Shown: positions 2,764 through 26,170, counted from the first letter of the stretch. The stretch is DNA of 64,000 nucleotides from Euglena gracilis (GCA_039621445.1 CP154954.1:20074642-20138641); one strand, 5' to 3'. The notes: generated from the sequence alone by a model not told the origin. Made by a program: numbers and translations.

Positions 2764-2937
2764 GCCTCAACCCTGCTGCCCTCCCCACGATGATGCACCC
2801 CATCAGCCCCCTGCGCTTCATGCTGGGCGTGATGACCGTCGGCCCCCTCTCCTTCATGGGCCTCGTCTGCGGGCTGTACAACGCCGAGGAGGCGTACCAC
2901 ACCCCGGCCTGGCGCCAGAGCCGCCGCGTCGTGCACA
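2764..2937 (+). CDS. First coding exon of small unknown protein, paralogue 1 (MMHPISPLRFMLGVMTVGPLSFMGLVCGLYNAEEAYHTPAWRQSRRVVH; one hydrophobic segment)
   Basis: Very high GC3; preceded by ctcac...ccccacag acceptor; ATG at 2790; near-identical copy at 24089-24251; 3' boundary has no GT, GGGCAGG fits an N3-CAG donor. Confidence 0.7.
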
Positions 2938-2971
2938 GGGCAGGGTCCCCCTCTCGTGTGCTATCCCCAGT

Positions 2972-3323
2972 CAGGCAATTGCTTAAGCACTGTCCCCCCC
3001 CCCCGGGGGGGTGGGTGACTGGTTTTTTCAGAGTGACTGACTGGTTTTGGGCCCGGGCCCCCTCCCCCCCCCCCCCGGGGGGGTCGGCCAGGAGTGGGCA
3101 AAAGTGGCTTGAGTAACCCCGGCGCCGAAGGCGCCGGAAAATTTTTTTGGGCCTAAAATGGCCTAAAGTGACTGGAAAGTGGCCGTTTTTCTGAGTGGCC
3201 GACCTCCCCCCGGGGGGGGGGTAGTGACTGGCTGGTTTTTTGAAAATGAGTGGCTGACTTTTTTTAAAAAAGTGGAGTGACCCCCTCCCCCCCCCCCGGG
3301 GGTCGGTTGTAAGCAATTGTATG
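2972..3323. mobile_element. hAT-type MITE
   Basis: TIR caggcaattgctta / taagcaattgtatg; perfect 8-bp TSD tccccagt (2964-2971, 3324-3331); related pieces at about 15390-15680 and 28560-28980. Confidence 0.85.
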
Positions 3324-3332
3324 TCCCCAGTA

Positions 3333-3527
3333 CCACGCCCCCCCCATAATGTACCACCCCCCCCATATTGTCCCACCGACCTCTCCCCAGGAGGCCCGCC
3401 GGGACAATATGGGGGGGGGACAATATGGGGGTACCAAAGGAAATTTCATTGACCGAGCCAAAAAAACCCCTCGTCGGCCGGGCCGAGGGACAATATGGGG
3501 GGGGGACAATATGGGGGGGGGGGGTGG
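3333..3527. mobile_element. Tc1/pogo-type MITE with C-run/G-run ends
   Basis: Flanked by TA on both sides; subterminal ccccatattgtcc motifs; near-identical inverted copy at 15812-15985. Confidence 0.75.
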
Positions 3528-4005
3528 TACCCCATGACCCCCAAAAATTTTTGACCAAAAATCGGCAGCCAAAGGTGGCCAGAAGATTTTCGGACCAGGT
3601 AAAATTTGGCAGATCTTAGATTCTTGTTTGCCATCAGGCGGACACAGAAAAAATGGACAAAAAAAACGCCCGTACCCCCCCTCCTTTCGAGGTTCCAGGT
3701 TTTCTGTGGTGCTGAGCTCTTTACGTGTCTGATGGTGCCGTGCTCAGCAGAACTTTGAGGCTCGTGGCAGCCAGGGTTTATCTATATCTATATCTACATA
3801 CCCTCACCCCCCCCCCTCAAAGTGGCCACCCTCCAAACACCGTGGGACCCCAAAATTCTCTCTTTTTTCTTTCGTTGGACTTTGCCAAATTCCGACGATC
3901 GCGAGCGTATCTCTGGCTGTGTCGATCGTTGAATTGAATTGAAAGCTCTTATCATCAGACGACTGGTGATCACCACCAAATTCAGCCATGCTGCACAGTA
4001 CTCTA

Positions 4006-4171
4006 CCCCCCCCTTTATCCCCTTTATTGTTCCATCGACCTGCCCCCGGCGGACAATAAGGGGGGGCAATAAGGCCGTACCAAAGGAATTTCATTGGCGG
4101 GGCCAAAAAACCCCCCGTCATCCGGGGCCCAGGGACAATAAGGGGGGGGGGCAATAAGAGGGGGGGGGTGG
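4006..4171. mobile_element. Tc1/pogo-type MITE inserted in another repeat
   Basis: TA flanks; the host repeat copy at about 7420-7515 lacks the insertion (empty site). Confidence 0.75.
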
Positions 4172-4727
4172 TATTTCTTGTCACAGGCAAAAGCCTAATT
4201 TGACCCGGACCCGGAACGGAAGGTCGTCGATTTGAAGCGAAAACTTTCTGGGGGTGGTTCGGGACGCGGGGGGGGGGGGATTGTGGCCCAACCACCCCAC
4301 ACATTTTCTTGGGCATCACCCAAATTTGTATGGAGTATTCCTTTGGTCAACCAAAAAATGTGCCCGGCCAAAATCCGGGACGCGGGGGGGACGCGGGGGG
4401 AACACCCCCTCTGTATGGTTCATTCCAAGGTTGACGGCTTGTTTTTTTTTAATCTCTGGAGCATTCATTTTTTTTCTTTTTTTGGGTTAAAAACGTGTTC
4501 AGCCCGCCAAATGCCTGCCCTGAAATTTGTGGTCATGAACACGATTTCCATTAGGGCATCTGTGGCAATGACACTTAAGGCATCTGTGGCAATTAAAAAA
4601 ATCGCTGTCATGAAAATGGCGAGAGGTTGAGAGGCCGGGTGGTCCTCAAGGGGGGCACTCTACAACACAAGAAACGGCCAGAGGTTGCCTTTGAGCAATA
4701 CAACAGGGAGTGTTAGACGTAATGGAA

Positions 4728-4895
4728 GGCGACATACTTTACACAAAAAAAGAGCCATATTTTGGTGGCCACCGCAAATCTTGGCAATGAGAATGGTATG
4801 CCAAACTGCAGGCATCACACACCACTTTCCTCAGCTCCACACAATTTGGATTTTTGGGAATGGGAACCCCACAAAAACCACATTTGTCCTGTTTT
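4728..4895 (-). pseudogene. PHD-finger-like coding fragment (KCGFCG...VVCDACSLAYHSHC...GSF[fs]LCKVCR)
   Basis: C4HC3 spacing is completed if one base is removed from the A7 run at 4745-4751. Confidence 0.6.
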
Positions 4896-5115
4896 ATAGG
4901 CAGTCGGGACGCAGCAGAGGCAGAGGGGGTTGGTTGGGGGGGGGGATTGGCGCTCTGCAGAAGGCAACACAACTCCCTTTGTGGAATGCCCGAGCGATGG
5001 CATTCACGTATGTATGAAAACAGGTTGCCGAACGATTCCCTGAAACCAACATACTTGCCACACATTGTTCAATGCTCGCCTCATCGAACAACAGGCTGGG
5101 CTCCAGCTCCCATCC

Positions 5116-5410
5116 CATAGGCGGGGGGGCTCCGCCCCCCCTCCCCCCCCGCACCCCCCCCCTCAAATAACAAAATCCCTTCTGTGTTGGAACATACTCG
5201 GGGCCTAAGTCGTTTTTGTGGCTCACTTTGGCATAGGCGGGGGGGGGGGGGCTCCGCCCCCCCCGCACCCCCCCCCTCAATTAACAAAATCCCTTCTGTG
5301 TTGGCAACATACTCGGGGGCTAAGTCGTTTTTGTGGCTCACTTTGGCATAGGCGGGGGGGGGGGCTCCGCCCCCCCCCTCAAATAACAAAATCCCTTCTA
5401 TGTTGGCAAT
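5116..5410. repeat. Tandem repeat, about 116-bp unit x 2.5
   Basis: cataggcggggg...aaatcccttctgtgttgg...gctcactttgg restarts at 5116, 5232 and 5348. Confidence 0.9.
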
Positions 5411-6544
5411 AGTCTTGGAGGGATAAGACCCTTTTTTTGTGCAAATTTTGACTTACCATCCCCCCCCCATTATGTACCTCCCCCCGGGAGGCCGAAATTG
5501 GGGGGGAGGTACACAATGGGGGGGGTACCCAGGTCCCATTCCCAGACCCGACCGAACAGCCCAAAAGGGGTCATTTTTGGCAACTTTTTGGATGTTTGCA
5601 ATAAATGGTCAATTTTCAGCACATTTGCCAAATATCACTTTTTGAAAACGTCCCAAAAACGTCGATTTTTGAGCATTTTTTGGGAAATTCTTTAGAAAAA
5701 GTGTTATGACAGTGAGCTACCATCCCCCCCCCATTATGTACCTCCCCCCCAGGGGGTACATGATGGGGGGGTACATAATGGGGGGGGATGGTATATTGAA
5801 AATTCAATGGGGTGTCAAAAGTGGCCCAAAATGGACATTTTCCCCCAATTTTTTTTGCATATTCACCCCCGATTGGGGGGTTCTGGAGCCATTTGGGTGG
5901 GTTTTGACTGGTGTTGAGGTGATTTAGACAAAAAAATTCCCAGGGGGGGGTTAAAAGTCGGCGGTTTTGACCCGTTAGTACATTAGAGTGGGTAGTCGGC
6001 CGACTAGTCGGCCGACTACCCAATTGGTCCGCCGGCTAGTCGGCCGACTACCCACTACCCCCCCCCCAGTCTACCGTTTGGCACTAAGTCTCTCTCTCTC
6101 TCTCTATACATACATACACACATACCATGCCCCCCCCATATTGTACCCCCCCCATAATGTACCCCCATGGGGTACCCCCCCACCATGGACCATGACCTTG
6201 GCCTCCCCCCATATTGTACCCCCCCCCATAATGTACCTCCCCCCCAGAAAATGGCTCCCAGGGGGGGGTACAATATGGGGGGGGGCATGGTACATATATG
6301 TATGTATATGTGCATATATATAAACATATACTCTCACCCCCAAAGTGTCCCCCCTAAGGCTGCCTTGAATATTCTATTTCGGGCCTTCGAACGAATATAC
6401 AGAATATTCGGGGGGTCTTCAAATCGGCCGAGAAATTGGTGATGGACTTTTTGGTGGTTGGTCGCTAGGGTCGCCAGCGACCATTGGTGGTCGGAGCGAC
6501 TGGTCGCTCCGACCACCAATTTTAAGTCCACCCCCCACTAAAAA

Positions 6545-7060
6545 ATTTTTAAGCCCCCCCCTCCAAAATTTTTTTCATTCAAATTTGAAAGAAAATGACT
6601 CAAAACCCACCCAAATGCCTTCCAAAACCTCCATTCGGGGGTCAATTTGCAAAAAAAATTGGGTAATATCTTCTCTTTGGGCCTGTTCTGTGAAACCATA
6701 GCATTAACCATAGCCCGGGAGGAGGCCGAAGGCCGACTAAGTTCATTAGGGAGCGCGACTCGGCCATCCTTGCCTGCACACACAAGACTACATTCATTTA
6801 CGAAGCGCGACTCGGCCATCCTTGCCTTGCACACACAAGGGGATTTTGTTATTTTGGGCGGGGGGTCCGGGGGGGGGGCGGCAGTAGGCCGACTAAGTTC
6901 GCGTATCGGGGTGCATTAGGGATCGCGACTCGGCCATCCTTGCCTTGCACACACTGCAAATTAACCCCCAAATGGGGGTTTTGGAAGGCATTTGGGTGGG
7001 TTTTGAGTCATTTTCTTTCGTATTTGAATGAAAAAAAAATGGAGGGGGGGCTTAAAAAAA
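6545..7060. repeat. Inverted repeat, about 110-bp arms around a 300-bp spacer that has three gcgactcggccatccttgcc copies
   Basis: About 6545-6652 is the reverse complement of about 6955-7060. Confidence 0.75.
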
Positions 7061-8111
7061 AACCAAAAAAGCCAAAAAACCCCCCGTCGGCCGGGGCCGA
7101 GGGACAATATGGGGGGGGGGGGGTAAGGTGGGTATCCAATTTTGGTGAATGTTCTGGAAAAGATCTTTCGATCGAGGGTAACTTGGTGCCTCAACAATGC
7201 ACACCTCAGAGATACGCTCGCGATTGTCGGATCGGACAGAATCAGATTCGAAACTTGTGGTGATTTTCTGTTCTGTTTGGTTTAGGAAGCAGAATGAACC
7301 AGGGTTGGCGTTTTTTTTGTTTTTTTTTATTCAAAAAAACGCCCCAAAAAACATGTTTTTTTTGAAAAAGCAAAAATTGACAATTTTCCGTAATCGCTCA
7401 GGAACAAACTCACCCCTCAATTGAAAGCTCTTTTCCTCAGACGACTAGCGATGACAACCAAATTCAGCCATGCTGCACAGTATTTGTTTCCTGTCACTGG
7501 GAAATCCTAATTTCTAAAACAAACACCAGAAATCACCGCAAACTTGAGCTCTGATTTTGGCCGAGCGAGCGTATCTCTGGGTGCGCGCACCGTTGGGATA
7601 CACTGCGTCTCAAGGTTATTCACGTGGCACCGTTTCAAGGTTTTTCATGTGGGTTAAAAAATGAAAAATTATGTTTCTGTGAGATGACGTCCAAATGACA
7701 GGCAAAGCAGCACATAGGGTGACAAATATCGCTTGGCACACTCCCCTGGTGCCTCTTATGTTGGGCCCCGGGCGGAATATTGGCCATGCTACTTCTGGAG
7801 GTCGGGCCGACCTAGGTCGGCCCGACCTATGGTCGGCCCGACCATGGTCGGGCCGACCATGGTGTTATCGACCTCTGGAGGTCGGGCCGACCTAGGTCGG
7901 CCCGACCTCCACTGTGCCGCATTCCCCCCCCCCCTTTTTTGAAATTTAAGCCCCCCCCCCCTGGTCGGGCCGACCTAGGTCGGCCCGACCTCCAATAATC
8001 CGCATTACCCCCCCCCCCTTTTTTGAAATTTAAGCCCCCCCCCCCCCGCCAAATTCCTCTCAATTTGGTTTGCAAACTGCCAAAATGTCAAGGTTGGGGA
8101 TGGAAAAGGGA

Positions 8112-8382
8112 TGGTTAGGGGTTAGGGATAGGGTTAGGGTTCGGGATAGGTTAGGGTTCGGGATAGGGATCGGTAAGGTTGGGTTTGGATTAGGGTTAGG
8201 TTAGGTTAGGGTTAGGTTTAGGGATAGGGTTAGAGTTGGGGATGTTGACGACAGTGTCAGGGTTGGGGTTAGGGTTGGGGATAGGGTTAGGGTTCAGAAT
8301 GGGGACAGGGTCATTGATAGGGTTAGGGTTTGCATTAGGGTTAGGGTCAGGGACATGGTTCGGGATACGGTTAGGGATGGGG
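8112..8382 (+). repeat. Degenerate interstitial telomere-like repeat (TTAGGG/ATAGGG/TTCGGG)
   Basis: Hexamer-periodic GGG repeats with many exact TTAGGG. Confidence 0.8.
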
Positions 8383-10290
8383 TTGCACCCGAGAAGGGGT
8401 TGGCAGATAAAAGGGTTTATTTTGTTAATGAAAGGGGCAGGGTTAGGTCGACTTGCACCCGAGAAGGGGTTGGCGGATAAAAGGGGTTTATTTTGTTAAT
8501 GAAAGGGATAGGGTTAGGTCGACTTGCACCCGAGAAGGGGTTGCCAGATAAAAAGGGTTGGCAGATAAAAAGGGGTTTATTTTGTTAATGAAAGGGGCAG
8601 GGTTAGGTCGACTTGCACCCGAGAAGGGGTTGGCGGATAAAAGGGGTTTATTTTGTTAATGAAAGGGATAGGGTTAGGTCGACTTGCACCCGAGAAGGGG
8701 TTGGCGGATAAAAGGGGTTTATTTTGTTAATGAAAGGGATAGGGTTAGGTCGACTTGCACCCGAGAAGGGGTTGCCAGATAAAAAGGGTTGGCAGATAAA
8801 AGGGGTTTATTTTGTTAATGAAAGGGATAGGGTTAGGTCGACTTGCACCCGAGAAGGGGTTGGCGGATAAAAGGGGTTTATTTTGTTAATGAAAGGGATA
8901 GGGTTAGGTCGACTTGCACCCGAGAAGGGGTTGGCGGATAAAAGGGGTTTATTTTGTTAATGAAAGGGATAGGGTTAGGTCGACTTGCACCCGAGAAGGG
9001 GTTGCCAGATAAAAAGGGTTGCCAGATAAAAGGGGTTTATTTTGTTAATGAAAGGGATAGGGTTAGGTCGACTTGCACCCGAGAAGGGGTTGGCAGATAA
9101 AAGGGGTTTATTTTGTTAATGAAAGGGATAGGGTTAGGTCGACTTGCACCCGAGAAGGGGTTGCCAGATAAAAAGGGTTGGCAGATAAAAGGGGTTTATT
9201 TTGTTAATGAAAGGGATAGGGTTAGGTCGACTTGCACCCGAGAAGGGGTTGGCGGATAAAAGGGGTTTATTTTGTTAATGAAAGGGATAGGGTTAGGTCG
9301 ACTTGCACCCGAGAAGGGGTTGGCAGATAAAAGGGGTTTATTTTGTTAATGAAAGGGATAGGGTTAGGTCGACTTGCACCCGAGAAGGGGTTGGCGGATA
9401 AAAGGGGTTGGTTGTGTTAATGAAAGGGATAGGGTTAGGTCGACTTGCACCCGAGAAGGGGTTGGCAGATAAAAAGGGTTGGCAGATAAAAGGGGTTTAT
9501 TTTGTTAATGAAAGGGATAGGGTTAGGTCGACCTGCACCCGAGAAGGGGTTGGCGGATAAAAGGGGTTTATTTTGTTAATGAAAGGGATAGGGTTAGGTC
9601 GACTTGCACCCGAGAAGGGGTTGCCAGATAAAAAGGGTTGGCAGATAAAAGGGGTTTATTTTGTTAAAGGGGTTTATTTTGTTAATGAAAGGGATAGGGT
9701 TAGGTCGACTTGCACCCGAGAAGGGGTTGCCAGATAAAAAGGGTTGGCAGATAAAAGGGGTTTATTTTGTTAATGAAAGGGATAGGGTTAGGTCGACTTG
9801 CACCCGAGAAGGGGTTGGCGGATAAAAGGGGTTTATTTTGTTAATGAAAGGGATAGGGTTAGGTCGACTTGCACCCGAGAAGGGGTTGGCAAATAAAAAG
9901 GGTTGGCAGATAAAAGGGGTTTATTTTGTTAATGAAAGGGATAGGGTTAGGTCGACCTGCACCCGAGAAGGGGTTGGCGGATAAAAGGGGTTATTTTGTT
10001 AATGAAAGGGATAGGGTTAGGTCGACTTGCACCCGAGAAGGGGTTGGCGGATAAAAGGGGTTTATTTTGTTAATGAAAGGGATAGGGTTAGGTCGACTTG
10101 CACCCGAGAGGGGGTTGCCAGATAAAAAGGGTTGGCAGATAAAAGGGGTTTATTGTGTTAATGAAAGGGATAGGGTTAGGTCGACTTGCACCCGAGAAGG
10201 GGTTGGCAGATAAAAGGGGTTTATTTTGTTAATGAAAGGGATAGGGTTAGGTCGACTTGAAATGGGGTTGGCGGATAAAAGGGGTTTATT
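8383..10290 (+). repeat. Minisatellite with 71-bp and about 88-bp units, about 24 copies
   Basis: Unit aggtcgacttgcacccgagaaggggttggcggataaaaggggtttattttgttaatgaaagggatagggtt; long variant has an extra 17-bp internal duplication. Confidence 0.95.
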
Positions 10291-10637
10291 TAGGGTTGGA
10301 ATTATGGTTTGGGGTTGGCCATGGAACTGATTTGGCCTTTCACCCCCTTTTTTTTCAATATGGGACATTTTCTGACGTTTTTAGGGACATTTTGATGTGT
10401 TTCCTTGCATTTTACATTGAATTAAGAGAATTAAATTTTTGAGGGGGGGGGGCTTAAAAATTAAAAATGGGGGGGGGTAATGCGGATTATTGGAGGTCGG
10501 GCCGACCTGGTCGGCCCGACCTCCAGAGGTCGATAAGCCATGGCCAAAGGTCGGCCCGACCTAGGTCGGCCCGACCTAGGTCGGCCCGACCTCCAGAACT
10601 AGCATGGCCAGTAATCCGCACGGAGCCCTTATGTTGT

Positions 10638-11031
10638 TTAATAGCGGGTGTGCAGGCGCTTGGCCGCCTGCACAGCCGTCAAACGACGGACCATGCTGCC
10701 ATACAAATTTGGGATCAGGGTAGGAGGGGCCTGGGACCACTCCCGTTGGAGAGCTGTCCACAGCTCATCACAGGACGAAAAGCGCTTCCCAACAAGGCGG
10801 AAAGCTCCTTCGCCCTGGCACGGGTCCCCTCTTCGATTCGTTCACATCCCCACTCTGATCGTAACCCTTCAGAATATAACGGACCGTCGCCTCGTTCACG
10901 TTCCGGCCCAGCCTCTCCCCAACCGCCCTGGCTATTGCTGTGGCAAACGGTCGCGGGACAAGTGCGGCATACGCCAGCACCTCTGCCCGGACACGCCGCC
11001 TGAGCTCACCGGAAGCGTGAGATCTGGTCAT
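10638..11031 (-). pseudogene. Tc1/IS630-family transposase remnant: N-terminal HTH joined out of frame to the C-terminus, DDE core deleted
   Basis: MTRSHASGELRRRVRAEVLAY...AIARAVGERLGRNVNEATVRYILKGYDQSGDV, then from about 10800 in another frame RLVGKRFSSCDELWTALQREWSQAPPTLIPNLYGSMVRRLTAVQAAKRLHTRY*, a typical Tc1 C-terminus. Confidence 0.85.
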
Positions 11032-11569
11032 TGTGCGACTGGGGAAGGAACAGGAATCACAAGACACGAAATATAAGTATTTTGGGACTGCAGCTTCCTG
11101 CCAACGGAAAGTGACCGCCACAATTTTTTTCATTTTTTTTTTCATTTTTAACGCACGTGAAAAACCTCGAAACGGTGGTGAATAACCTTGAGACGTAGTG
11201 TACCAAGTTACCCCTCGATCGAAAGCTCTTTCCAACAGACGGCCAGCAGTGGTCATAAGATTTTCCCACAATGCACAGTACTCTTATTCCAAAACAGCAC
11301 CAAGTTTGACCAAAATTGGATACTCCCCCCAGTGGTCCCCAAATGCCAAAATTTCATTGCGGTTAAAACAGTCATATCAGGACCTCTACGACCAATTTGG
11401 GTCATTTTTGGGCACTTTTAACAACATTTTTAGTGATCACAGAACTGGCGTTAGGGATGCCGGGTTTTGGACAGAACTGGTGTTCCTAAAACACCGTGGG
11501 TGGGAACGCCAGTTCTGTCGTGAACCCGGTGTCTCAAACACCGGTTTAGTGCAGATTTGGAGTGAAACG

Positions 11570-12270
11570 GGCTGAAATGGCCATAACTCGGGCCATGCAG
11601 GGGGTTGCGAGGAAATCGAAATAGTGTTAGATAGGGTCTCCGGACATTTCCTTTGATTTTGCTTCATTTCTGAGCAGGGGTTTTTTTAGTCGTGGACCCC
11701 CGGAGGGGGGGGGGGTCGGTGGGTCCGGTTTCTGAGATATTTGGAAACATCGATTTTTTTTTACCCCGGAAACAGCACAAAATGGCCCCTGAAATGGGCC
11801 AAAATTGGCCGAAAATGGCCATAACTTGGGCTACACGAAGAGTTGGGGGAAAAGTAAAGCGTGCTTGGATAGGGCATTCCAACTGCTTCATTTGGCCTCC
11901 GGACATTTCCTTTTGATTTTGCCTCATTGTCGAGCGTGCCCACGGGCCAGGCATGTTGGCAGCCAAAACAGCGAAGGGGTGATACAGGGCCTCCAGGCAC
12001 ATTTTGGCCTGATCGACACTTCCGGAAATAATGTCCATTTTCTTGACATATATTTCAAAAAATCGATGTTTTGACCAAAAATCTCACCCCGGCAAACTGA
12101 CGGAGTCAAAACTGGGGGGGGGGGTGGCGAATCCATGAAAACCGTGGATTATCACCATGATCCTGGGCTTGTTCCCGGATTTTTTTTTCTTCAGTCGCAA
12201 GCGACTGGATCCCCAGTTTCTAATCACCTCCAGTTGACCCCCCAACTCCCCGCTGTTCACCCGTGAAGTC
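11570..12270. repeat. Unclassified dispersed repeat family (ggacatttcctttgattttgc / ggggagttgcggggaaatc)
   Basis: Related copies at about 16650-17290, 26930-27370, 43590-43860 (reverse) and 53215-53500 (reverse). Confidence 0.7.
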
Positions 12271-12734
12271 CAAACTGGGATTCAAGGGTGTCATGGCCAA
12301 GTGTGAGCTCCTTCAGCAAATTTTTTGAAGGGCGCTTTCGGGGTGCCCTTGGTCGACTGGCAGGGGGGGGGGGCTTTGTGGCAGGGGTCAAAATCCTTGT
12401 GTTTGCAAGGCAAGGATGGCCACGCGTCATATCCCAAATGCAAGATCAATCACCAACCTTCGCCGGGAGGGTGCATTAATTGCCTACCCCCCGCCTGCCC
12501 ATAGCGCCCACAGGGTGCTAATAAATTGTTAAAGCAAATTGAGGATTCCCACAAATGCCTGACAGTCAGTTGTGCAGCTTCTAAACATGCCAACCTCTCC
12601 CAACAATCCCCCTGGAGGGTCCCGGCCCAGAGGGTGGTTCCGGACACCCTCCCCCTGGGGTGGGTCCCCAGAAAAAAACCCTGGGGTGGGGTGGGTCCAA
12701 AAGAACCTCATATCACATGAGCTGGGAGGAGGGG

Positions 12735-13062
12735 CAGTGGGACTCTGGCGGCAAGCCATCGAGGAAGCGGAGACCACCGCCAGGATCCGCACCAATGAAA
12801 CCCACCTGGCAGCCGCCCCCATCGCCATGTGCAGGGTGTTAAGGGACCCCCCCCCCCCCCGGAACCCCCAAGAATTGTTCCGGCGCTTTGTGCCGGAAAA
12901 GATTTTAAAAAAACTTGGTGAATGTTGTGACCGATTCTTCAAAAAAAGCTCGCAAAAATGCCGTCGCAAAAAAATTCTGGCACTTTCTTCCACTTTCTTT
13001 TCTTTTTTTTTGCGCAGGGGGAGGGGGGCATAGACCCCTCATTTAATACCCTGGCCATGTGA
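12735..13062 (+). CDS. Terminal coding exon of paralogue 1 (..WRQAIEEAETTARIRTNETHLAAAPIAM*), interrupted at its stop codon by a hAT MITE / candidate intron 12829-13058
   Basis: GC3-rich; aligns to 26084-26170 with synonymous changes and a 12-nt in-frame indel; TGA at 13060-13062; 5' boundary approximate. Confidence 0.6.
12832..13053. mobile_element. hAT-type MITE
   Basis: TIR cagggtgttaa / ttaataccctg; perfect TSD gccatgtg (12824-12831, 13054-13061); empty site at 26162-26169. Confidence 0.9.
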
Positions 13063-13341
13063 GGCAGGCATGGCCCCCATCCAAGGTATCTCCACAGCTG
13101 TGCTGGGATTCTCTCAATCCAAGCTCCAAGCTTTTGTTTGTGCTTAAATTGTCCAGACATTGTCTTCTTTGATGGCTTTCAGTGATTTGGTACCAGCGTT
13201 TACCCTCTTCCTGTTATTTAAATGCATACAGGGGGCAGGTGGCAACCTCGAGCATTGTTTGCATGTTTTTTAAATGTCTACAGCAATTTTCCTGGCCCAG
13301 AACCCACGTCCACCCATTGCTTTCAAAAACAGTCCAGTTGC

Positions 13342-13402
13342 GTATGTATGTATGTATGTATGTATGTATGTATGTATGTATGTATGTATGTATGTATGTA
13401 TG
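13342..13402 (+). repeat. (TATG)n microsatellite
   Basis: About 15 perfect units, abutting a TA-flanked MITE at 13403-13462. Confidence 0.95.
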
Positions 13403-15811
13403 TACCCCCCCCCTTATTGTCCCACCGACCGGACAATATGGGTGGGGGACAATATGGGGGTACCCCAGCCTGGTTGCGGGCCCTGGCTGTTGTCTACATG
13501 TCCCCCCCATTGGCGCAGGCTGATGAAATGGGCGGGTACCAAAGCTTGAATGGCACTTTTCTCAGCAATCATGAAGGCAGCCGCTTCCCAAATTATAAAC
13601 CTTTCGGGGAATTTGGACCAAAAGATTGTTGGTCTGTGATCATCCATCATTTTACCGTGACCCCCCCCCAAGAGCCAGAGCCTCATTTCAAAAGGAAAAT
13701 GCTTATGACGGGGGTTTTTCGGGGGTTCGCGACTTTGAAGGCCGGTCCCAGGTGGCCAATTTGGCAATTTGACAACCCTGCCCCTAATTGGCCAGAAGGC
13801 GGCATCCAGGCCAGGGGGTTTCTCAAGCCGGAGGGGACCCAGCCAGCCAGCACCTTTTTTCCAGCAACTCCCAGCCGGGCTGCGGACCGACCCCGGGGGG
13901 GGGGTCCACTGAAATCAGGGATCCTCACACGTCCTGAAAGGGAAATTCACGGAGGATCATGGAAATGGACGGAAGGCCATTTTCACGGAAATCACGGAAA
14001 TTCACGGATGAGGCGGAGGGCATTCTTTGATCCTTTGCACTTTTTTTTGTGGGGAACAGGAATTTTTTTTTAACACTGCCATCCAGCCCCCCCCCCCCGA
14101 GGCAGATTGCTATCAGTACATTGAATGCATTTTGGGTTCCTGTTGTGTGCCAGCACCTGGAGCATTCCAAGGATCCCAGCCCTGCAGGACTGGCACCTTA
14201 GTTGCAGGTGCAGTCACTGACTCGTATCGTGTCGACTCGTATTTTTGTGGCGTTGTGGAAAATGCAATGCCACACCAGGGCGTAGACTGGTGGGGAGTGT
14301 CTTCTCTGCATTTTCTATGTTCTGGGGTGGTGTGCTATGTGATTTTTCTCTTGACAACATTTTTTTAATGCAGGAGAATGTTTCTGACGAGAAATTTCTT
14401 TAAGTTTCAGATGTGTTTTTCTTGCAATCACCAAACCGCCCTTTTTTTGCTTTTTTGGGTGGAAGTTGAGCAAAACGTTGCAGTAAATTCTTTCACGCTT
14501 TCTTTGGAAAAAATTATGGGGATTTGCTGTGGGGACATCTCGCATTTAAATGTTTTGGTCGGTGTGAGCAAACATGGATTATACTATCATTTAGTCACTG
14601 CCCCCCCCCCCCATTTACCATGTCCCCCCCCCTTACTGTTCCCGTCCCGTGGCCCCCTTTTGGGTCCATGGGAACAGTAAGGGGGGGGGGAACAGTAAGG
14701 GTGGGGACAAGCTCCCCCCCCTTACTGTTCCCATGGGCCATGAACCAACCAACCAATTTAGACCCAAAAGGCGACCTAAAATGCCAAAATGAAGCTTTTT
14801 TGGTTTACATGCTTGAAAATTGCACCTCCACAACATCCATTTTGGCATTAGGTTGGATTTTGGTGGGATGGAAAGCACATTCCCCCCCCCTTGTCCTTGA
14901 CACGCCTTGTCCATGACACACCCCCCGTGTCAACCGCATTTTTCCCGTACCTAAAAAGAGTAAAGTATTTTTGACACACTTCACGTCTCTGGAGCTAATT
15001 GGTCGCCATTTTCTGCAAAGAACCATGGCTTTGGACTCATCTTCTTTTGAGTGTGGTGATTTAATGAGATATGAGCGCTCCAAGGAAGTTATTGTTGATG
15101 CTATGGTGATTGGGATTACCCAGATTACCTGGCCATCGTTTTGCTGCATGTTTTGTGGTACGGTTCCCATGACACGGCGTGTCCATGACACACCCCCCGT
15201 GTCAACCGCACTTTCCCCGTACTTTGGCGTGTCAAGGACAAGGGGGGGGGAATGCACCTAAAACCGACCAAAAAAAATCCCCTTTTTAACCTTGTGTTCC
15301 AAGAATCTTTTACAAAAGTGCTATGACATTGTATTGTTCCCGTCCCCCCAATGGGAACAGTAAGGGGGGGGAACAGTAAAGGAGAGGGGCATGGTAGTCA
15401 CCCCCCCCCCCCGGGGGGTGACTGGTTTTTTCGGAGTGACTGGCTGGTTTTTGGCCCGGACCCCCAGCCGAAGGCCAGAAATTTTTTGGCCTTTTTTTCA
15501 TGTTTTTTTGGTCAAATCTCCTTTGGATTCCAGAGTGGCCGACCCCCCCCCCCCCAGCAGGGGCAGTGACTGGCTGGTTCCCCCCCCCCAAAGTGATTGA
15601 CTGGTTTTTCGAAGAGTGGGGTCAGGGGGGTGAGGACCCCCCCTCCCCCCCCGGGGGGTCGGTGAAAAATTGTATGATATGGACCTCTGCACAAATTTGT
15701 GTCATATTGGGTATACACATTCGGTCCATAAGCAGCAGTGTTCCAGAAAGGTTTGTTTTTATGTCGGGGGGGGATCTGGCACGGGGGTGCCGTTCTTGAC
15801 CAAAATGGCTA

Positions 15812-15985
15812 CCCCCCCCCCGTATTGTCCCCCCCCCCATATTGTCCCTCGGCCCGGCCGACGAGGGGTTTTTTTGGCTCGGTCAATGAAATTTCCTTTG
15901 GTACCCCCATATTGTCCCCCCCCCATATTGTCCCGGCGGGCCTCCTGGGGAGAGGTCGGTGGGACAATATGGGGGGGGGGGGTGG
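15812..15985. mobile_element. Tc1/pogo-type MITE, inverted copy of 3333-3527
   Basis: Near-identical reverse complement; TA flanks. Confidence 0.8.
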
Positions 15986-16137
15986 TAACTTGGGGGGGGG
16001 GTTCTAAACTTTTTCTCAGGGCTGGAAGGCCAATTTGAGGGGGGGGGGTAAATTTTTTCTTTACCATTTTTGTATGGTTATTTTCCGAATTTTTCTGAAT
16101 GCCCAATTTGGCCCGGGTATTTTACAAAACCCAAAAT

Positions 16138-17404
16138 CAGCCTTGTGCTTAGTCGGGTGCCTACCCCACGGGGGGGGAGGGGCTGCTAGGGGCAGGCACC
16201 CCATAGCACCCGATCCGACCCCCCAGGGTTTGGGAGGTGCCTGCCCGTGGCAGGTACCCCCCTCCGACCCCGGCGCAGAAGGCGCCAGGGGCCCGGAAAA
16301 GGCCATTTTCAATGAAAATTTTCTGGGTCCCCCCGGACCCCTACCCCCGGGGGGGGGTGTGCCTGCTCGGGGCAGGCACCCCACAGCACCAGGTTTTGAA
16401 TAGTGCTGAGCTCTTAATAAGCGCGCACCCACCCGTTCATTGAAAATTTTTTTCGATTTTTTTCGACTTTTTCGACCCGGTTCTGACCCAAAGTCAATGG
16501 GTCGGCGGCCCAAAACGGGGCGCTGGCGGGTCGAAAAACGCTCGTTTTCGGCTCAAAAACAGTTTTTCCGGGTCCGGGAGGCCAAAAAACATCGTTTCGG
16601 GCAAAAAAAATTTTTTTCGATTTTTTTCGACTTTTTGGGCCGAAAACGGACAAGTCGAACAGAGGGAAAAGTGTACAAAATGGCCTGAAACGGCCCAAAT
16701 TGGCCAAAAAACGCCCGTGTCTCGGGCTGGGCGGGGAGTTGTGGGGAAACCAAAGTCCCAGTAGATAGAGCGTTCCAAGGGCTTCAATTTAGGTCTCCGG
16801 ACATTTCCTTTGATTTTGCAACATTTTCGAGAAATTTTGAAAACATTCGTTTTTTGACCCCCCACCCCCCGAAAACGGCTAAGTCGAACAGTGGAAAAAG
16901 TGTACAAAACGGCCATCCGGGCCAAAAACGGCCGTATCTCGGGCCAGGCGGGGAGTTGCGGGGAAATCAAAATACTGGCATATGGGGCGTTCCAAGGGCT
17001 TCAACTTAGGTCTCCGGACATTTCCTTTGATTTTGCATCATTTTGGAGATATTTTGAAAATTGACATTTTTTGGCCGTCCAAAGGGGGGGGGGCTTATCC
17101 AGGGGGGTTGGCCAATCCTACCCAGTTTGGACCCCTTCGCACGTGAATAACTCGGGCCTGGCGGGGAGTTGGGGGTCAAACCCAGGTGATTCGGAAACTA
17201 GGAATCCAGTCGCTCGCGACTGAAAAAAAAAATTTCGGGAACGGGGCCGGGATCATGGTGATAATCCGCCGGTTCCCGAGGTGGCCCCGAGGGGGGGGGG
17301 TTCGGGGGGGGTTTTCCCCCAGTGGTAAGCTTCGCTCTTACCCATAAAGGGATAAGAGCTAAGCGACCCCCCCCTCCCCCCCCCGGTCGGTAAGCACAAG
17401 CATG
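16138..17404. mobile_element. hAT-type element (aggcaccc family) with nested repeat
   Basis: Ends cagccttgtgctta / taagcacaagcatg as in 22814-23100; flanks acccaaaat / acccaaat differ by one homopolymer base. Confidence 0.6.
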
Positions 17405-18179
17405 ACCCAAATGCCCAATCTTGGGGGGGAGGACAATCTGGAGGGGGGGTGGTCTGCAATGTTACTGCAGATCACATTGTCCAAATGATGGGATTTGTTG
17501 GTGTCAACCGGGGATGTAACCCCCCAAATAACTTGGCTTAATGTTTAATAATCCGATGATCTAGAACTTATCCAGTGATCGTACACATGGAATTTTTCAA
17601 TGTGCAATTGATTCCATCTCCTCTCAAATGAAAACATCATCCCAAGGGCTCTGATGACACTTTCAACGTTTTGGATCATTTATGGACCATGTCCTCCCGC
17701 TTCAAGCGCCCCAGAAATCTGGGGATGGGGCAAAGAAATTTTTTAAAGGTTTGTGACCCAGGGGGGGGGTTGGGCTGAGTGGGCACCCTGCCGGAGGCGG
17801 GGTTTTGTTCCATTTTTGGCGCAAAGTGCAAAAATAATTTTTGGACTCCAAAAATTGACCCCCCCCACAAAAGCGGGCCCCGAGCCCTCCCGGGGGGGGG
17901 GGGAGGGTTGACCCCCCCGGTATGTCTTGGATGGTGGTCCGCCTCTGAATGTGTTTGGATTTTTTCCCGGTGGGCAAGCAACGACAATGTCGTCGCCCTG
18001 AGCTGCACTGGTCTCCCTGGCTGCCATGGCCCATTGCCATGGCTGCCACCCCCGTACCGGACATCGTTCTTTCCCCTCCACACCCCCTCACGCACCCTTC
18101 CGGCGTAGCTCTTGCCGGGGGACGTTCCGTGCAGAGGTGCACTCTCCATCCAGCCCTGCTCTGTGGACTTCTTGACATA

Positions 18180-18181
<2 letters not shown>

Positions 18182-18211
<30 letters not shown>
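18182..18211 (+). repeat. (TG)n microsatellite
   Basis: Direct reading. Confidence 0.9.
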
Positions 18212-18213
<2 letters not shown>

Positions 18214-20095
18214 CTGTGCTTTGTTTTTAAGACGACATGCCCTCCCAGATCAATGAGCTGGGGGGGGGGATATTTGATGAAAATCCATCTCTTTTGCATT
18301 CTTGCAGTCAACTGCACAAGGGCACCGTACTGCACCAGGGGGAACCAGTCAGCCACAGCCTTCCCTTCCCAGCCACCCCCCTTCGGGCAACTGGACAGCG
18401 ACGGATTGCTTGCTTTCGGGGGTGCAGGGCCAAAAATGGGTCAAAAATGGACGAAAATGGGTCACAAAAGGGCTGGCTGGCCAGGCCAAATTTGGGGTCA
18501 AAAGAAATCGATTTTTTTTTTGCATAATTGGCAGTTTTTTTGGACATTTTTGCAGAGCACTTTTTCAATTTTTTGGCACCCGGTTCGACCCTGGGTTGGC
18601 CGGCTCCAGCCTGGGGCCCGGGGGGGGGGGGCAGCAGCCTTTTTCCAGCCAGCCCAAATTTTCCAGCCTCTGAGCTGGATTCCCCAGGGTCGTTAAAAAA
18701 ACGCCTTGTGCTTTACAAGACCACCTGGCCACCTGCCATGTGGCTGTTTGGGGCCATCAGGGACTGGGTTTGATATTTATCAACACGAGCATATCATTCT
18801 TCATCCATCACACCTTGCCGTTTTGGACATCTCAGGCCCAGATCTGAACATTTCCTCATTGATTTTGATGTGGGATCAGTGCAAAAGTTTAATTTGCTTA
18901 GCAGTCTGCCCTGCCAATCCCTTGTAATGCCTGAATTCGATAAAGAAAACCTGTGAAGCGTTTGTGCAGCTGTGTGTTTGTATGCACGTGCATGTGTGCT
19001 CACTGAATAGGTTTGCCACACCACACAAAAATGAAAGCGTGGCATTTTCTATGTGAGGGTGGATTTGACAGCAGCAGTCCAACGACAGCCCTGTGGGAGG
19101 CTGACAACCTCTCTTTCAGCATAAAGTGCCCAAGTGCATGCATGTGTCTGGGAGGCAGGGCTTGGTTCTGCCCCCCAATCACCTTGGGCATGGCCCACCC
19201 CACTGGTAGTTTCTCATTTCCATCCTTACCAGGCTGCCGCACATCGATGCTTCTCCATCCATCTGCCATGAGAAGGGAATGCATTGTAGTTCAGGCAAGG
19301 ATTTGTGGGCAAGGATTGCCACAAATTTGTGCCACAACTGCCGGGTGGGGGGGGAATTGGAGGCTGAAAAAATTGATTGGGAAAAAATTGGCCTTTTTTT
19401 GAAAATCCTGCCTCAAAATTTTCAAAATCACCTTCCAGTCATCTTGCAAACAAAACCTGCCAATTTTTTCCGGGCCGTTTTCAGGTTTGGCACCAATTTT
19501 TTCGGTTTCCAATTTTGTTAGTCTAATTTTATCTAGCTTCGATTTTTTCCCTCCCCGGTAATCACAAATAGTCACGAACCAGCACGAAGTTGGGGATTTT
19601 CAAAATCATGAATATTCACAAATAATCATGTATAACCTTGAATAATCACAAATGACCATGAACACTAAAATTAAGGAATTTCAGTTTTCATTGGTCAAAA
19701 ATCTGGGGGGGGGAATATTGCCAAAAACTCCCAAAATGGAACAAAACGTCACTCAGAAGAATGAAACGAAAAAAGGTTTCCAAGACATTGAAATCTGTTA
19801 GGTCAGTCAATTTCCAAGAGGGCGCCAGTTTAGGTCTGGCAATTTCCAAGAAGGCGCCCGTTTTTGGACCAGAAACCACTTTTTTTTGGCAATGTCTCCG
19901 TCCAGATGGTCGGTCGGTCGAGATGCCCACAAAATTTCTGTAGACAAAGGTGAGGTTTATTTTTCTTGCGGGGGTCTGGGGAGGGGGGGACTCGAACAGT
20001 TTCATACGTCGCGCAATTGGCCCACAAAATAAGTATGTAGACAAAGATGAGGGTTTGTTTTTCTTGCCGGGGGGGGGTCCAGGGGGAGGGGGGGG

Positions 20096-20621
20096 CAGGG
20101 ATGGATGGGAAGCCCTTCGGTATTGAGGTAGGTGGTAGGGGGGGGTCCCGACCACCCCCCCCCCCTGGGGGGGTAAGGTGGTAGGGGGGGGCCCGGACCA
20201 CCCCCCCCCCCCCTAGATGTTGGGGTCCGGACCCCCCACCCCCCCCTCCTTGACAGGTGCCAAAAATAGCAGAAAATTTTCTTCCGGCGCTGTGCGCCGG
20301 AAAATGAGCAAAAAACACCCCTTTTGCTGACTTTTGGCCATATTGCCCGTTTTTTGATGTGTTGGTGTTTTCCCCCAAAAACATGTTCAAAAAAATTCAA
20401 AAAATGAGCATTTTTGGATCGATTGTCAAAGAAAAATCAGGGGTTTTTGACCGATTTTGACCCAATTTCCGGCCCTTTGCCCGTCCATGAAATCGAAAAA
20501 TTTTCGGCCCCCCCTCAGTTTCGAGGTAGGAGGGGGGGGTCCGACCCACCCCCCCCCCCCTCCGTGTCGGGAGGGGGGGGTCCGACCCACCCCCCCCCTC
20601 AAGGCTTCCCATCCATCCCTG
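20096..20621. mobile_element. hAT-type MITE
   Basis: Perfect TIR cagggatggatgggaagcc / ggcttcccatccatccctg; G-rich flanks match 7/8. Confidence 0.75.
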
Positions 20622-21607
20622 GGGGAGGGGGCAGGAGCCCGCCCCCCACCCCCGGGCACTCAAACGGTTTCATGCGTCGCGCGATTTGCCCAGAAACCAA
20701 TGCTTCGGAAAAGGTATACGGTGGGTAACCAACTGTACATAGTATGGGTAAAGGAATGGGGTGGGTGGGATATATGGCCTCCTGCAGTTTGTGCAACAGT
20801 GGCCATGAGGATGTGTGTTTTTCAAATTTGCCAAAATTTGCCAAAATTCGCCAATTTTACCGAATTTTGGCAATCTCTTGGCCTTTTTGGGGGGGTTATT
20901 TTGCCAATTTCTGCTGGGAAGTAATCCCATCCCGACTTAGGAAAATTTCGCAGATTTGGACCAGATTTTTACCTGCAATCGCAAGTTAAGGCCAGGGGCC
21001 CGAGAAAAAAATTCGCAGTTTGAGTCATTTTGTGAAATGGTGTATATTTTGAGCTGTCATTCACACTTTTTCAACAAAAAGCCCACAAATATGGAATTTG
21101 TTGGCTGAAACCCCCGAAAATGAAAAAAAAATAACAAAAAGTTTTGCTCCGCCATTTTTTGGGTTTTTTCCCCTCAAGTGCAGATTTGTTCCCTGAGGTT
21201 CAGTCATGGCCAGGCACCTATAGCTAAAATGGCCTAAAATGGCCTCAAATGGCCTAAAATGGCTTTTTGACCCCCTAAAGGTGGGGGTCCCTAAAATGGC
21301 CCAAAATGGCCTAAAATGAGAAAATTTCTGAGGCACAACAATTTTTTGTGAACAACTGAAGCCATTCGAGTGATGATTTTCGGTATCTTGTTTACGTGGA
21401 CAGCAAACAGTGGATTTGATGGAGGAGCACAGCCCCTCAAGGTCCATTTTTTTTCTCCCAAGTGTTATTAGTATCGTCCCCCAAACCCACAGTCCCAAAC
21501 CTTTTTTTGGTAGCTGAATTTTGAAGGTTTGGACAGGTGCATTTCTTCTTATTCCCATCTTTTTTGCTGTGCACCGATGCTGCAAGTAATGAAGCAGTGC
21601 AAATCTA

Positions 21608-22013
21608 CCCCCCCCCCCTAGTCGTACGACCACCCCTCATTTATGACCACCCCCCGGTCACAGGTTGCAGGTCATGGGGGTGTTATGACCACCCCCCCCC
21701 GGTCACAGGTTGCAGGTTGCGAAAAATTTAACCCCCCAAAATAAGTCCGCCCCCTGGCCGGTCCGAGCAAAAATCCATGAAATTGACCCCCCCCAAATAA
21801 GGTCCCCCCTGCCGGCGCGAAGCGCCGGATTTTTGAAAAATGGGACATTTTGGGGGGGGTAAATTTGCCATTTTGGGACAGTTTTCACACACTTCTACGA
21901 CCGCCCCCTCATCTATGACCACCCCCCGGTCACAGGTTGCAGGTTATGGGGGTGTTATGACCACCCCCCCGGTCACAGGTTGCAGGAACCCGGTCATACG
22001 ACTAGGGGGGGGG
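21608..22013. mobile_element. pogo-type MITE (ggtcacaggttgcagg repeats)
   Basis: TA flanks, C-run/G-run TIR with ctagtcgta/tacgactag; family copies at 22448-22713, about 23960-24032 and 25765-25953. Confidence 0.8.
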
Positions 22014-22447
22014 TAGAAACATGGGTAAAAAGGCAGAAAAAAATTGAAGATATTGGAAAAATCTCAACTGAAATATGTGTGTGTTCATTCGTTGGGTACC
22101 AGGGATTCCTTCAAATCACGAACCAGCACAATTTTGGGGATTTTCAAAAACCACAAATAATCACGCCGAATGATCAAATGACCCAAACAAACAACCACAA
22201 GCAATTATGAATGAGATTCTCTCCGATTTATGAACGTGTTCAGAGGGTTTTCTTTTTAGTATTAAGTTCCCCCAAAGGGGAAAACAAACAGAGAGAAGAG
22301 GAATTGATCTCAGCTTTGCCCTTTGATCTCTGCCGTCCTCTCTCAATTTTGCCAAAAAAGGCCCAAATGGCTAAAACAATGCCAAAATCAAATTGAATTG
22401 CACCAGGCAACAGCATCATCTTTCAGAAAAAAAATGACATCTTCTTA

Positions 22448-22713
22448 CCCGCCCCCCCCCCCCTTTGTCGTACGACCACCCCTCATTTACGACCACCCCC
22501 CGGTCACAGGTTGCAGGTCATGAGGGTGTTATGACCACCCCCCCGGTCACAGGTTGCAGGTTGCGAAAAATTTAACGCCACTTTACCTACAACCAGCGCC
22601 TCATTTTACGACCACCCCCCGGTCACAGGTTGTAGGTTATGGGGGTGTTACGACCACCCCCCTGGTCACAGGTTGCAGGAACCCGGTCGTACGACAAGGG
22701 GGGCGGGGGCGGG
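22448..22713. mobile_element. pogo-type MITE (ggtcacaggttgcagg repeats)
   Basis: TA flanks; TIR cccgcccc..ttgtcgtacgac / gtcgtacgacaa..ggggcggg. Confidence 0.8.
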
Positions 22714-22813
22714 TAGGCGGCGCATCTCGCACTCAAGCTTTTTTTGGTCGATCTGAGCATCTTCGCAATCGACCAAAAACCACTTTGAGCATTGGCGTTG
22801 CAGGGGGTGAGAG

Positions 22814-23100
22814 CAGGCTTGCGCTTAGTCGGGTGCCTACCCCACGGGGGGGGGGTGCTAGGGGCAGGCACCCCATAGCACCCGATCCGACCCCCCCAGG
22901 GGGGGGGGGTAGGGTTTCGGGGGGTGCCTGCCCCTAGCAGGCACCCCCCTCCGACCCCGGAAACGGCCATTTTCAATGAAAATTTTCTGGGTCCGGCCCG
23001 GACCCCTATCCCCCCCCCCGGGGGGGGTGTGCCTGCTAGGGGCAGGCACCCTATGGCACCCACCCCCCCTCCCCCCCCCCGGTTGGTAAGCACAAGCATG
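22814..23100. mobile_element. hAT-type MITE (aggcaccc family)
   Basis: TIR caggcttgcgctta / taagcacaagcatg; perfect TSD ggtgagag. Confidence 0.85.
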
Positions 23101-24088
23101 GGTGAGAGCGAGAGGCAGCAGGATTGGACAAAATACAATGTATTTTTGGGATTTTGGGGTCATAACTTGTCATTTGTCAAAATTTCCACTGCCATAAATT
23201 CTTATTGTTCGGAATTCCTGTGTGATTATGAGGTAAGTTTTGTTGAGCTTCCCATGGTTATTATCCAGTGTTTGTGGAATTTTGCATGCTTTTTTGAATG
23301 TGCATTTCTTATCACTGAATAAGAGAAGGTTTGCACACGTTATGATACAATTTTCGGGACAAAAAATGACGCAAAATTATGATTTTCAGAACCCCACCTA
23401 TACCTTAAAATGACCTGAAATGGCCCAAAGTGGCCTTAAATGGCCTAAAATGGCCTTAAATGGCCTAAAATGGGGAAAATTTTGGGCTTGATTATAGGTG
23501 CCTGGTCATGGCCTGAGCCAATGATGGCCCTGAATATCTCTTTTTTGGGGGGCACGAACCGCCGGATTTTTTCCTTTGCAGTCAGGGTTTCCCCCCTTGT
23601 CGAAGCACCCACATTACAAACATATCACTCCCCTCCATCTTCACCCCGTCTCTTCCGGTGCTTTGACCTCCCCTGGGGGAGGGGGTCGGGCTGTGCCCCC
23701 CTCTTCTCTACCGCCAAGGTGCCGAAGGTTTTTCGAACCCAAAATTCACCCTCTCAAAGTGGGTCCCCCTGGACCCCGACCGGGGGGTGTGGTGGGGGGT
23801 CACCTTTTGGAGAACAAGAAGATGGGGTCGAAAGACCCTTCCCCTTGCAGTTGGCCACGGACCACTGCCACGAGACCCGAAATGAAAGTGAATCAGTCGG
23901 GTGAAGTCCGGATGCCATAAAGTGGCCTCCTTCGGCGAGGGGTGGGGGGCAATCCTCGCCCCCCCTCATTTACGACCCCCCCCCCCCGGTCACAGGTTGC
24001 AGGAACCCGGTCGTACGACAAGGGGGGGGGTAATCACTTGGATGGAAAAAGGGGGGTGGGCCTGCTCTTACTGTGCTCACCCCCACAG

Positions 24089-24251
24089 ACCGCCCTCCCC
24101 ACGATGATGCACCCCATCAGCCCCCTGCGCTTCATGCTGGGCGTGATGACCGTCGGCCCCCTCTCCTTCGTGGGCCTCGTCTGCGGGCTGTACAACGCCG
24201 AGGAGGCGTACCACACCCCGGCCTGGCGCCAGAGCCGCCGCGTCGTGCACA
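24089..24251 (+). CDS. First coding exon of paralogue 2
   Basis: One substitution (M to V) relative to 2790-2937; ATG at 24104; same acceptor context. Confidence 0.7.
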
Positions 24252-24399
24252 GGGCAGGGTCCCCCTCTCATGGCATGCTCCCTCTCGTTGTTGTTTTTTT
24301 TTGCAAGCAGCCAGACTTTTTTTCAGTCGGGTGCCTACCCCACATGGGGGGGGGGGTGGGTGCTAGGGGCAGGCAGGGGGGGGGGGGCAGGGTTTTGGG

Positions 24400-26080: not shown

Positions 26081-26170
26081 GAGCAAGTGGGACCCTGGCG
26101 GCAAGCCATCGAGGAAGCGGAGACTACCCCCGGGATCCGCACGGATGCCGCCGCCCCCATCGCCATGTGA
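26081..26170 (+). CDS. Terminal coding exon of paralogue 2 (EQVGPWRQAIEEAETTPGIRTDAAAPIAM*)
   Basis: GC3-rich; homologous to 12735-13062; TGA at 26168-26170; 5' boundary approximate. Confidence 0.6.
   Translation, partial: EQVGPWRQAIEEAETTPGIRTDAAAPIAM

Follow-up and report, generated by a model that had tools for sequence, protein, structure and literature searches.

Is the 222-bp element that sits on the stop codon of a small Euglena gracilis gene an intron, and did it arrive there as a transposon? The window analyzed here, a stretch of 64,000 nucleotides, holds the gene twice: paralogue 1 (P1) carries the element and paralogue 2 (P2) does not. The comparison of the two sites, the RNA made from them, and the other elements of the window each bear on the answer.

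Results

A 222-bp element with a perfect target-site duplication

The stretch 12824-13062 consists of GCCATGTG, the 222-bp element, GCCATGTG again, and an A. The element (12832-13053) starts with CAGGGTGTTAAGGGA, ends with TCATTTAATACCCTG, and lies on the ATG-TGA of the 75-codon ORF of P1, between the two copies of a perfect 8-bp target-site duplication (TSD), GCCATGTG (12824-12831 and 13054-13061). At the corresponding place P2 reads CCCCCATC-GCCATGTG-AGGCAGGCA with no interruption, positions 26154-26180 being CCCCCATC-GCCATGTG-AGGCAGGCACC. P1 is the filled site and P2 the empty one, and the TSD is perfect over its 8 bp. A first-pass annotation, made before this analysis, had described a CAGGG...CCCTG element of 222 bp with a perfect TSD across ATG-TGA, and an uninterrupted GCC ATG TGA in the paralogue; both descriptions hold in the sequence. 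The features of the two sites are as follows.

12824-12831, plus strand: first TSD copy, GCCATGTG, comprising the final codons GCC and ATG plus the TG of the stop codon
12832-13053, plus strand: 222-bp non-coding, MITE-like element with terminal inverted repeats (TIRs), 5′ TIR 12832-12846 and 3′ TIR 13039-13053
13054-13061, plus strand: second TSD copy, GCCATGTG
13060-13062, plus strand: stop codon (TGA) that ends the 75-codon ORF once the mRNA is spliced
26162-26169, plus strand: empty site in P2, GCCATGTG once, with TGA at 26168-26170

The inverted ends of the element are imperfect, with CAGGG at both ends and identity at 10 of the 13 outermost TIR positions. As RNA, 14 of 15 end positions are paired (12 Watson–Crick and 2 G.U), and a subterminal poly-C tract (12847-12860) pairs with a poly-G tract (13017-13028) in a second stem. 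The minimum free energy fold of 12809-13078 closes both junctions on each other at -95.3 kcal/mol, compared with -81.8 +/- 5.2 kcal/mol for shuffled sequences (z = -2.58; 1 of 200 shuffles as good). The arm mismatches 12838/13047 and 12843/13042 are both G against A, and the sense-strand RNA still pairs them as G.U. The same G.U pattern occurs in P1 intron 1 (CAGGG versus CTCTG); the cases are few, and the pattern may be chance. The 64-kb window contains no second copy of the element, so within it the element does not form a multi-copy family. In a metagenome scan for the 17-nt 5′ end, 14 loci matched, each over 17-19 nt only, which we attribute to chance.

The host gene and its tandem paralogue

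Both paralogues lie on the plus strand, and their exons and introns were placed as follows.

2764-2937, plus strand: P1 exon 1, with spliced-leader acceptor AG at 2762-2763 and ATG at 2790
2938-12752, plus strand: P1 intron 1, 9,815 nt, nonconventional (GGG-CAG...CTG-GCGGC|A), containing a 71/88-nt satellite
12753-13099, plus strand: P1 exon 2, split by the element into 12753-12828 and 13059-13097/13099; the last coding exon, not the last exon
13100-19222, plus strand: part of the P1 3′-UTR, with introns at about 13100-14183/14185, 14274-18004 and 18158-19089
about 14184-14273, 18005-18157 and 19090 to beyond 19222, plus strand: P1 3′-UTR exons
24089-26623, plus strand: P2, with exon 1 at 24089-24251 (ATG 24104), exon 2 at 26103-26223 and exon 3 at 26524-26623
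24252-26102 (1,851 nt) and 26224-26523, plus strand: P2 introns; the next exon starts near 29123

When exon 1, to 2937, is joined to exon 2, from 12753, with the element left out, the frame ends ...GCC ATG TGA, which is the ATG-TGA reading frame that the first-pass annotation had claimed. Its further view that the exon bearing the element is terminal fails, because RNA joints continue into three more exons past it. The ORF has 75 codons in P1 and 71 in P2, an in-frame indel of 12 nt accounting for the difference; retention of the element would lengthen the P1 ORF by 67 codons, to 142 in total. No ORF common to both paralogues was found in the exons 3′ of the stop codon.

The gene encodes a small protein that contains a single hydrophobic stretch. 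The exon 1 portion of the protein (49 aa) matched no Pfam family and had no word-sharing homologue of 26-86 aa. An exhaustive protein search gave two weak matches, one to a 65-aa unnamed protein (72% identity over 29 residues, E 4e-5) and one to a repetitive 902-aa protein, which was taken as spurious. Exon 1 and the first 18 bases of the intron are 99.4% identical between the paralogues (P1 2778-2955 versus P2 24092-24269), whereas the first introns (9.8 kb versus 1.85 kb) have diverged beyond alignment. The contrast points to gene conversion, or to strong constraint acting on both exon 1 and the 5′ arm of the intron.

RNA lacks the element and one copy of the duplication

Transcript data were drawn from four studies: two raw RNA-seq runs (X21 and X24) and two contig sets (X15 and X16) that we guessed to be RNA. 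Approximately 5 in 100 of X21 and 6 in 100 of X24 were used. Reads were aligned to 10300-27800, which includes both paralogues and so left the reads free to choose between them. The figures below come from the 15 joints listed of 227.

12823 to 13054, 230 nt skipped, ambiguity 8: X21, 120 reads (68 start places); X24, 51 reads; X15 and X16, none
12826 to 13057, 230 nt skipped, the same gap: X21, 81 reads; X24, 12 reads; X15 and X16, one contig each
P1 exon 1 to exon 2: X21, 313 reads; X24, 56 reads; X15 and X16, one contig each
P1 exon 2 to exon 3, two acceptors summed: X21, 131 reads; X24, 80 reads; X15 and X16, one contig each (13097 to 14182 only)

A P1-specific RNA junction had been set beforehand as the test of the intron, and it was found: the joint ...CAGCCGCCCCCATC-GCCATGTG-AGGCAGGCATGG omits exactly 230 nt, equal to the element and one TSD together, in all four runs. 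Altogether it is present in 201 reads and 29 loose ends of X21 and in 63 reads of X24, and is as frequent as the neighboring junctions. The loose ends are the P1 versions of the flanks, AGGCAGGCATGGCCCCC behind 12831 and CAGCCGCCCCCATC before 13054. By a rough estimate from the depth bin 12636-13219, the element would be retained at no more than a few percent of exon depth. Among the 15 joints listed of 227, none is a back-joint spanning the element. P1 exon 1 lies outside the aligned region, and its reads fell on the 99.4%-identical P2 exon 1, where they are visible as a joint that goes back from 24251 to 12753 and through G>A at 24170, carried by 315 of the 531 X21 reads.

The reads and the window also differ at single positions. 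X21 has an additional T at 14241 in 102 of 246 reads, and about half of the reads at 26143 (115 of 218) show G>C; these variants are expressed alleles or differences between strain and assembly. A loose end at 19222, consistent in 32 reads, was considered as a further exon and rejected; it marks an indel by which the reads differ from the window.

An alternative to removal on RNA is that the joined reads come from DNA that never carried the insertion, be it a second haplotype, a different strain or a third P1-like copy that went unseen, so that the element in the window would be a private, recent insertion. Allelic variants are indeed present in the RNA runs (14241, 26143 and the indel-like end at 19222), and because rare variants are lost from contigs, nothing follows from the lack of an unspliced one. 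On the other hand, the 230-nt joint appears in four of four runs from four studies, and its counts equal those of the flanking junctions, which makes it unlikely that an unspliced insertion allele is expressed at a sizeable share. Furthermore, 62-73% of the sampled words of 10400-14400 are present in 14 DNA-type runs, and the element carries all the cis-requirements that, according to Nomura et al. (PMC12501133), suffice for splicing at a foreign site. We regard the alternative as unlikely; in cells that bear the insertion, the element would be removed on the RNA.

Elements with 8-bp duplications recur in the window

We scanned the 64-kb window for pairs of 13-nt inverted repeats (at least 10 matches, 40-4000 bp apart) with CA[AG]...[CT]TG ends, and recorded for each pair the longest perfect direct repeat touching both ends; low-complexity arms and repeats were dropped. 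Five of the 1,357 pairs are flanked by direct repeats of precisely 8 bp, and none by repeats of 5, 7 or 9-12 bp. A 6-bp repeat occurs once, as a palindrome within the large inverted repeat at 61.6-63.7 kb. Block shuffling (20 rounds, averaging 892 pairs) yielded no pair with a repeat of 7 bp or more. A scan free of the terminus condition, which also dropped pairs with complementary two outer bases, found 8-bp repeats at 4 of 7,049 pairs, all four CA-ended, and at none in 10 shuffles. The 8-bp TSD pattern of the CA...TG-ended elements is more than chance, and since lengths of 5, 7 and 9-12 bp are missing, it points to a fixed staggered cut. Beside the element in P1, the scan returned four others.

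21211-23504, unstranded: TIR element (CAGGCACCTATAG...) of a family unrelated to the P1 element, perfect 8-bp TSD GTCATGGC, in poorly transcribed DNA
29386-30923, unstranded: another member of the CAGGCACCTATAG family, whose perfect 8-bp TSD differs from that of the first copy, CCAATGAG
45721-47353, unstranded: TIR element (CAAGCACCTCTG...), perfect 8-bp TSD CCGAGCAC
52510-52805, unstranded: 296-bp MITE (CAGGCTGT...), perfect 8-bp TSD GACCAGAC

The last of these belongs to a 300-bp family with further copies at 50682-50983 (TSD matching at 7 of 8 positions) and 36483-36787 (3′ end decayed). The three copies have a mean identity of 85% and are rich in GGGGGGGTC and GCCTGCCCAGGCAGGC palindromes, fragments of which are scattered through the window. 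The two CAGGCACCTATAG elements contain internal tandem repeats of the TAAAATGGCC type, and the CAAGCACCTCTG end at 45721-47353 is related to the CAGGCACCTATAG ends.

What kind of transposon the P1 element represents can be judged from its structure. The first-pass annotation had called it a hAT MITE. The hAT-type part of that name is consistent with the 8-bp TSD, the short TIRs and the terminus CAGGG, which matches YARNG; a YARNG terminus and an 8-bp TSD are given as hAT hallmarks (PMC3014272). On the other side, no transposase domain turned up in the 20 ORFs scanned of 97 with at least 140 aa in the window, where the sole match was Lectin_leg-like and below cut-off, no autonomous partner was seen, and the window contains the element only once. 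The TSD GCCATGTG does not fit the weak target preference of hAT elements. On structural grounds, the transposase that moved the element would be of the hAT kind.

A transposon of another superfamily with 8-bp TSDs, Merlin or possibly P, would leave a similar duplication. Two Merlin families with 8-bp TSDs are described in E. gracilis (PMC8101967), our literature search returned no report of hAT in Euglena, and the 20 ORFs mentioned above contain no hAT transposase. The 5′ TIRs of the Merlin elements described in PMC8101967 all start with GG, whereas the P1 element starts with CA, has no GG-starting register with a flanking direct repeat, and has in CAGGG a terminus that fits YARNG. A superfamily other than hAT is improbable, in our estimate.

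Repair of a double-strand break with filler DNA, instead of transposition, is a much weaker candidate. The precedent is a recently gained nonconventional intron with 8-nt direct repeats, for which break repair was proposed (PMC4770533), and the P1 element is single-copy in the window. Yet the element has inverted ends; four further CA...TG-ended elements with exactly 8-bp repeats lie in poorly transcribed (21211-23504) or unmapped DNA; the two CAGGCACCTATAG copies sit at different targets; and the other repeat lengths are missing from the scan. We consider filler DNA very improbable, and return to transposition as the source of the element.

One of nine cut registers fits the euglenid splicing code

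The intron proposed by the first-pass annotation presupposed a euglenid host, and the transcripts show the host to be one. Unaligned read tails ATTTTTTTTC(G) occur in X21 at AG acceptors 15-26 nt before the ATG (30 and 40 reads; acceptors 2763|2764 in P1 and 24088|24089 in P2). They match the end of the E. gracilis spliced leader, whose conserved 12-nt 3′ end is TATTTTTTTTCG (PMC4778363). All eight introns mapped here are nonconventional, and none is GT-AG.

Owing to the TSD, nine equivalent cut registers give one and the same mRNA. Only one of them, 12829-13058, fits the code N3-CDG/CH′G-N5-6|R, as GTG-CAG...CTG-GCCAT|G: CAG occupies +4..+6, the complementary CTG occupies -8..-6, and the first base of the downstream exon is G (13059), a purine. 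This code was derived by Nomura et al. (2025) from non-slidable introns and tested by knock-in; altering the 5′ spacer by 1 nt abolished splicing, an additional nucleotide in the 3′ spacer was tolerated, a purine at the exon start was preferred, and CTG...CAG was functional as well (PMC12501133).

12829-13058, plus strand: 230-nt nonconventional intron in the register that fits the code (RNA joint placed at 12823 to 13054 or 12826 to 13057)

The first-pass annotation had placed the intron at exactly these coordinates. The code fit, the removal of 230 nt and the restored stop codon uphold it; the 3/5 register of the cuts is the likely one on the basis of the code. Cutting by the ordinary spliceosome can be dismissed as exceedingly improbable, for although one register starts with GT (12829-30), it ends in AT, no register of the nine is GT-AG or GC-AG, and none ends in AG.

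The remaining seven introns show how general the register is in this gene pair. An inverted repeat begins at CAG or CTG in all eight, with 7-12 Watson–Crick pairs of 15 in the other seven. The main joint has the 3+5 register in four: the insertion in P1, P1 intron 1, and P2 introns 1 and 2. The other four have N3+N4, N2+N4 (twice) and N3+N1, the 2+4 register belonging to P1 intron 4 and its P2 homologue and the 3+1 register to P1 intron 5. Thus, 3+5=8 is modal, not universal, among the eight. P1 intron 3 (13097-13100/14182-14186) uses two acceptors, N4|G and N6|A, which lie 4 and 6 nt after CAG and are near-equal in X21 (66 versus 65 reads), and skips N5|C; its choice of acceptors is a natural example of the purine rule. 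The older introns among the eight have no recognizable TSD.

Discussion

We conclude that the element in P1 is a genuine nonconventional intron, young and derived from a transposon, and an unusually clean case of its kind. The whole sequence of events is best explained, and we think probably so, by a transposon insertion that followed the gene duplication and is removed as a nonconventional intron together with one TSD copy. A non-autonomous TIR transposon (CAGGG...CCCTG) would have inserted into P1 after the tandem duplication of a small Euglena gene, creating an 8-bp TSD of the length typical of hAT-like elements. The ends of the element would themselves supply the CAG/CTG pair recognized by the euglenid nonconventional splicing system. 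One cut would then fall 3 nt upstream of the 5′ CAG and the other 5 nt downstream of the 3′ CTG, ahead of a purine, and the mRNA would return to its pre-insertion ...GCC ATG TGA with the stop codon restored. Because the spacers of 3 and 5 nt add up to 8, the length of the TSD, the RNA loses the element and exactly one TSD copy. The intact target duplication also argues against gain by reverse splicing, which would be expected to import old spacers without duplicating the target.

Several parts of this picture are already published, as the first-pass annotation had recognized for a transposon origin in general terms: separate reports exist of a MITE origin, of 8-nt repeats flanking a young intron and of the 3/5 spacers. 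A MITE origin of euglenid nonconventional introns was proposed by Milanowski et al. in 2014 (PMC3935182), and a 2024 review draws CAG/CTG as TIRs and the junction repeats as TSD-like (PMC11282704, Fig. 3D). The MITE idea has so far rested on inverted ends and "TSD-like" repeats. Those two papers agree with our reading on both features; the text of them available to us differs in giving no filled and empty pair, TSD length or superfamily, and the wording hAT, 8-bp, 8-nt or superfamily is absent from that text of the review. As late as 2025 the origin of nonconventional introns was called unclear and MITE-like elements were "suspected" (PMC12501133).

The introns of Nomura et al. (PMC12501133) resemble the present one in their 3-nt spacer, CAG, paired CTG, 5-nt spacer and exon-start purine, and in non-GT-AG ends that form a stem. 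Here, by contrast, the two spacers are the halves of an intact 8-bp TSD, and the empty site is available; "slidable" introns were excluded when the code was derived (PMC12501133). Intron 4 of gapC in E. agilis ACOI 323, which is absent from related genomes, is likewise young and has eight-nucleotide junction repeats (Milanowski et al. 2016, PMC4770533). It was read as break repair, and the available text draws no link to a superfamily or to 3/5 spacers (PMC4770533). In P1, the empty site is a paralogue instead, and similar elements with 8-bp TSDs lie away from mapped exons. We did not find a link of 3+5 to an 8-bp TSD, or to hAT, in the literature; the supplements of PMC12501133 and PMC4770533 may show an 8-nt peak.

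Transposons that act as introns have parallels outside the euglenids.

Huff, Zilberman and Roy reportedly found in 2016 that the spliceosomal introners of Micromonas and Aureococcus are DNA transposons removed with one TSD copy. The likeness lies in the loss of a transposon plus one TSD copy and the restoration of the mRNA. Those introners use GT-AG and the spliceosome, whereas no register of the P1 element ends in AG, and the element conforms to the nonconventional system of euglenids. The maize Ds element is said to have served as a de novo intron (Giroux et al., 1994). Non-autonomous hAT elements such as Ds share with the P1 element the 8-bp TSD, YARNG, short imperfect TIRs and removal from the transcript; the P1 element differs in that its removal is exact and non-spliceosomal, and its likeness to hAT is one of structure.

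It is a real possibility, if one somewhat short of an even chance, that the strict 3/5 spacers are an RNA-level mirror of the 8-bp staggered cut of a transposase, and that most nonconventional introns (which make up ~70% of all introns in these genomes) are hAT-like CAG...CTG insertions, the other registers being decayed or shifted descendants. If so, such insertions would be harmless from the moment of landing, since removing 3+5 nt along with the element amounts to removing one TSD copy with it. The relation 3+5=8 would also explain why mutagenesis found the spacers to have these lengths; it refines the published hypothesis and makes it testable genome-wide. The P1 locus unites a filled and an empty site, a perfect TSD, inverted ends, exact loss on the RNA, and sister elements with equal TSD length, and it provides a clean example of Euglena introns arising from mobile DNA.

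Other features of the window

Rfam and tRNA scans of the window gave no matches. The ORF 1167-1928 on the minus strand gave the borderline Lectin_leg-like match (E 3.5e-5, 23.7 bits against a cut-off of 24) and is probably an exon of an ERGIC-53-like gene. The satellite in P1 intron 1 is G-rich and spans 1.9 kb (8383-10291, GC skew +0.54), with 71/88-nt units and a higher-order period of approximately 230 nt. A large inverted duplication at 97% identity occupies the end of the window (61609-62209 versus 63148-63747, and 62332-62950 versus 63381-64000).
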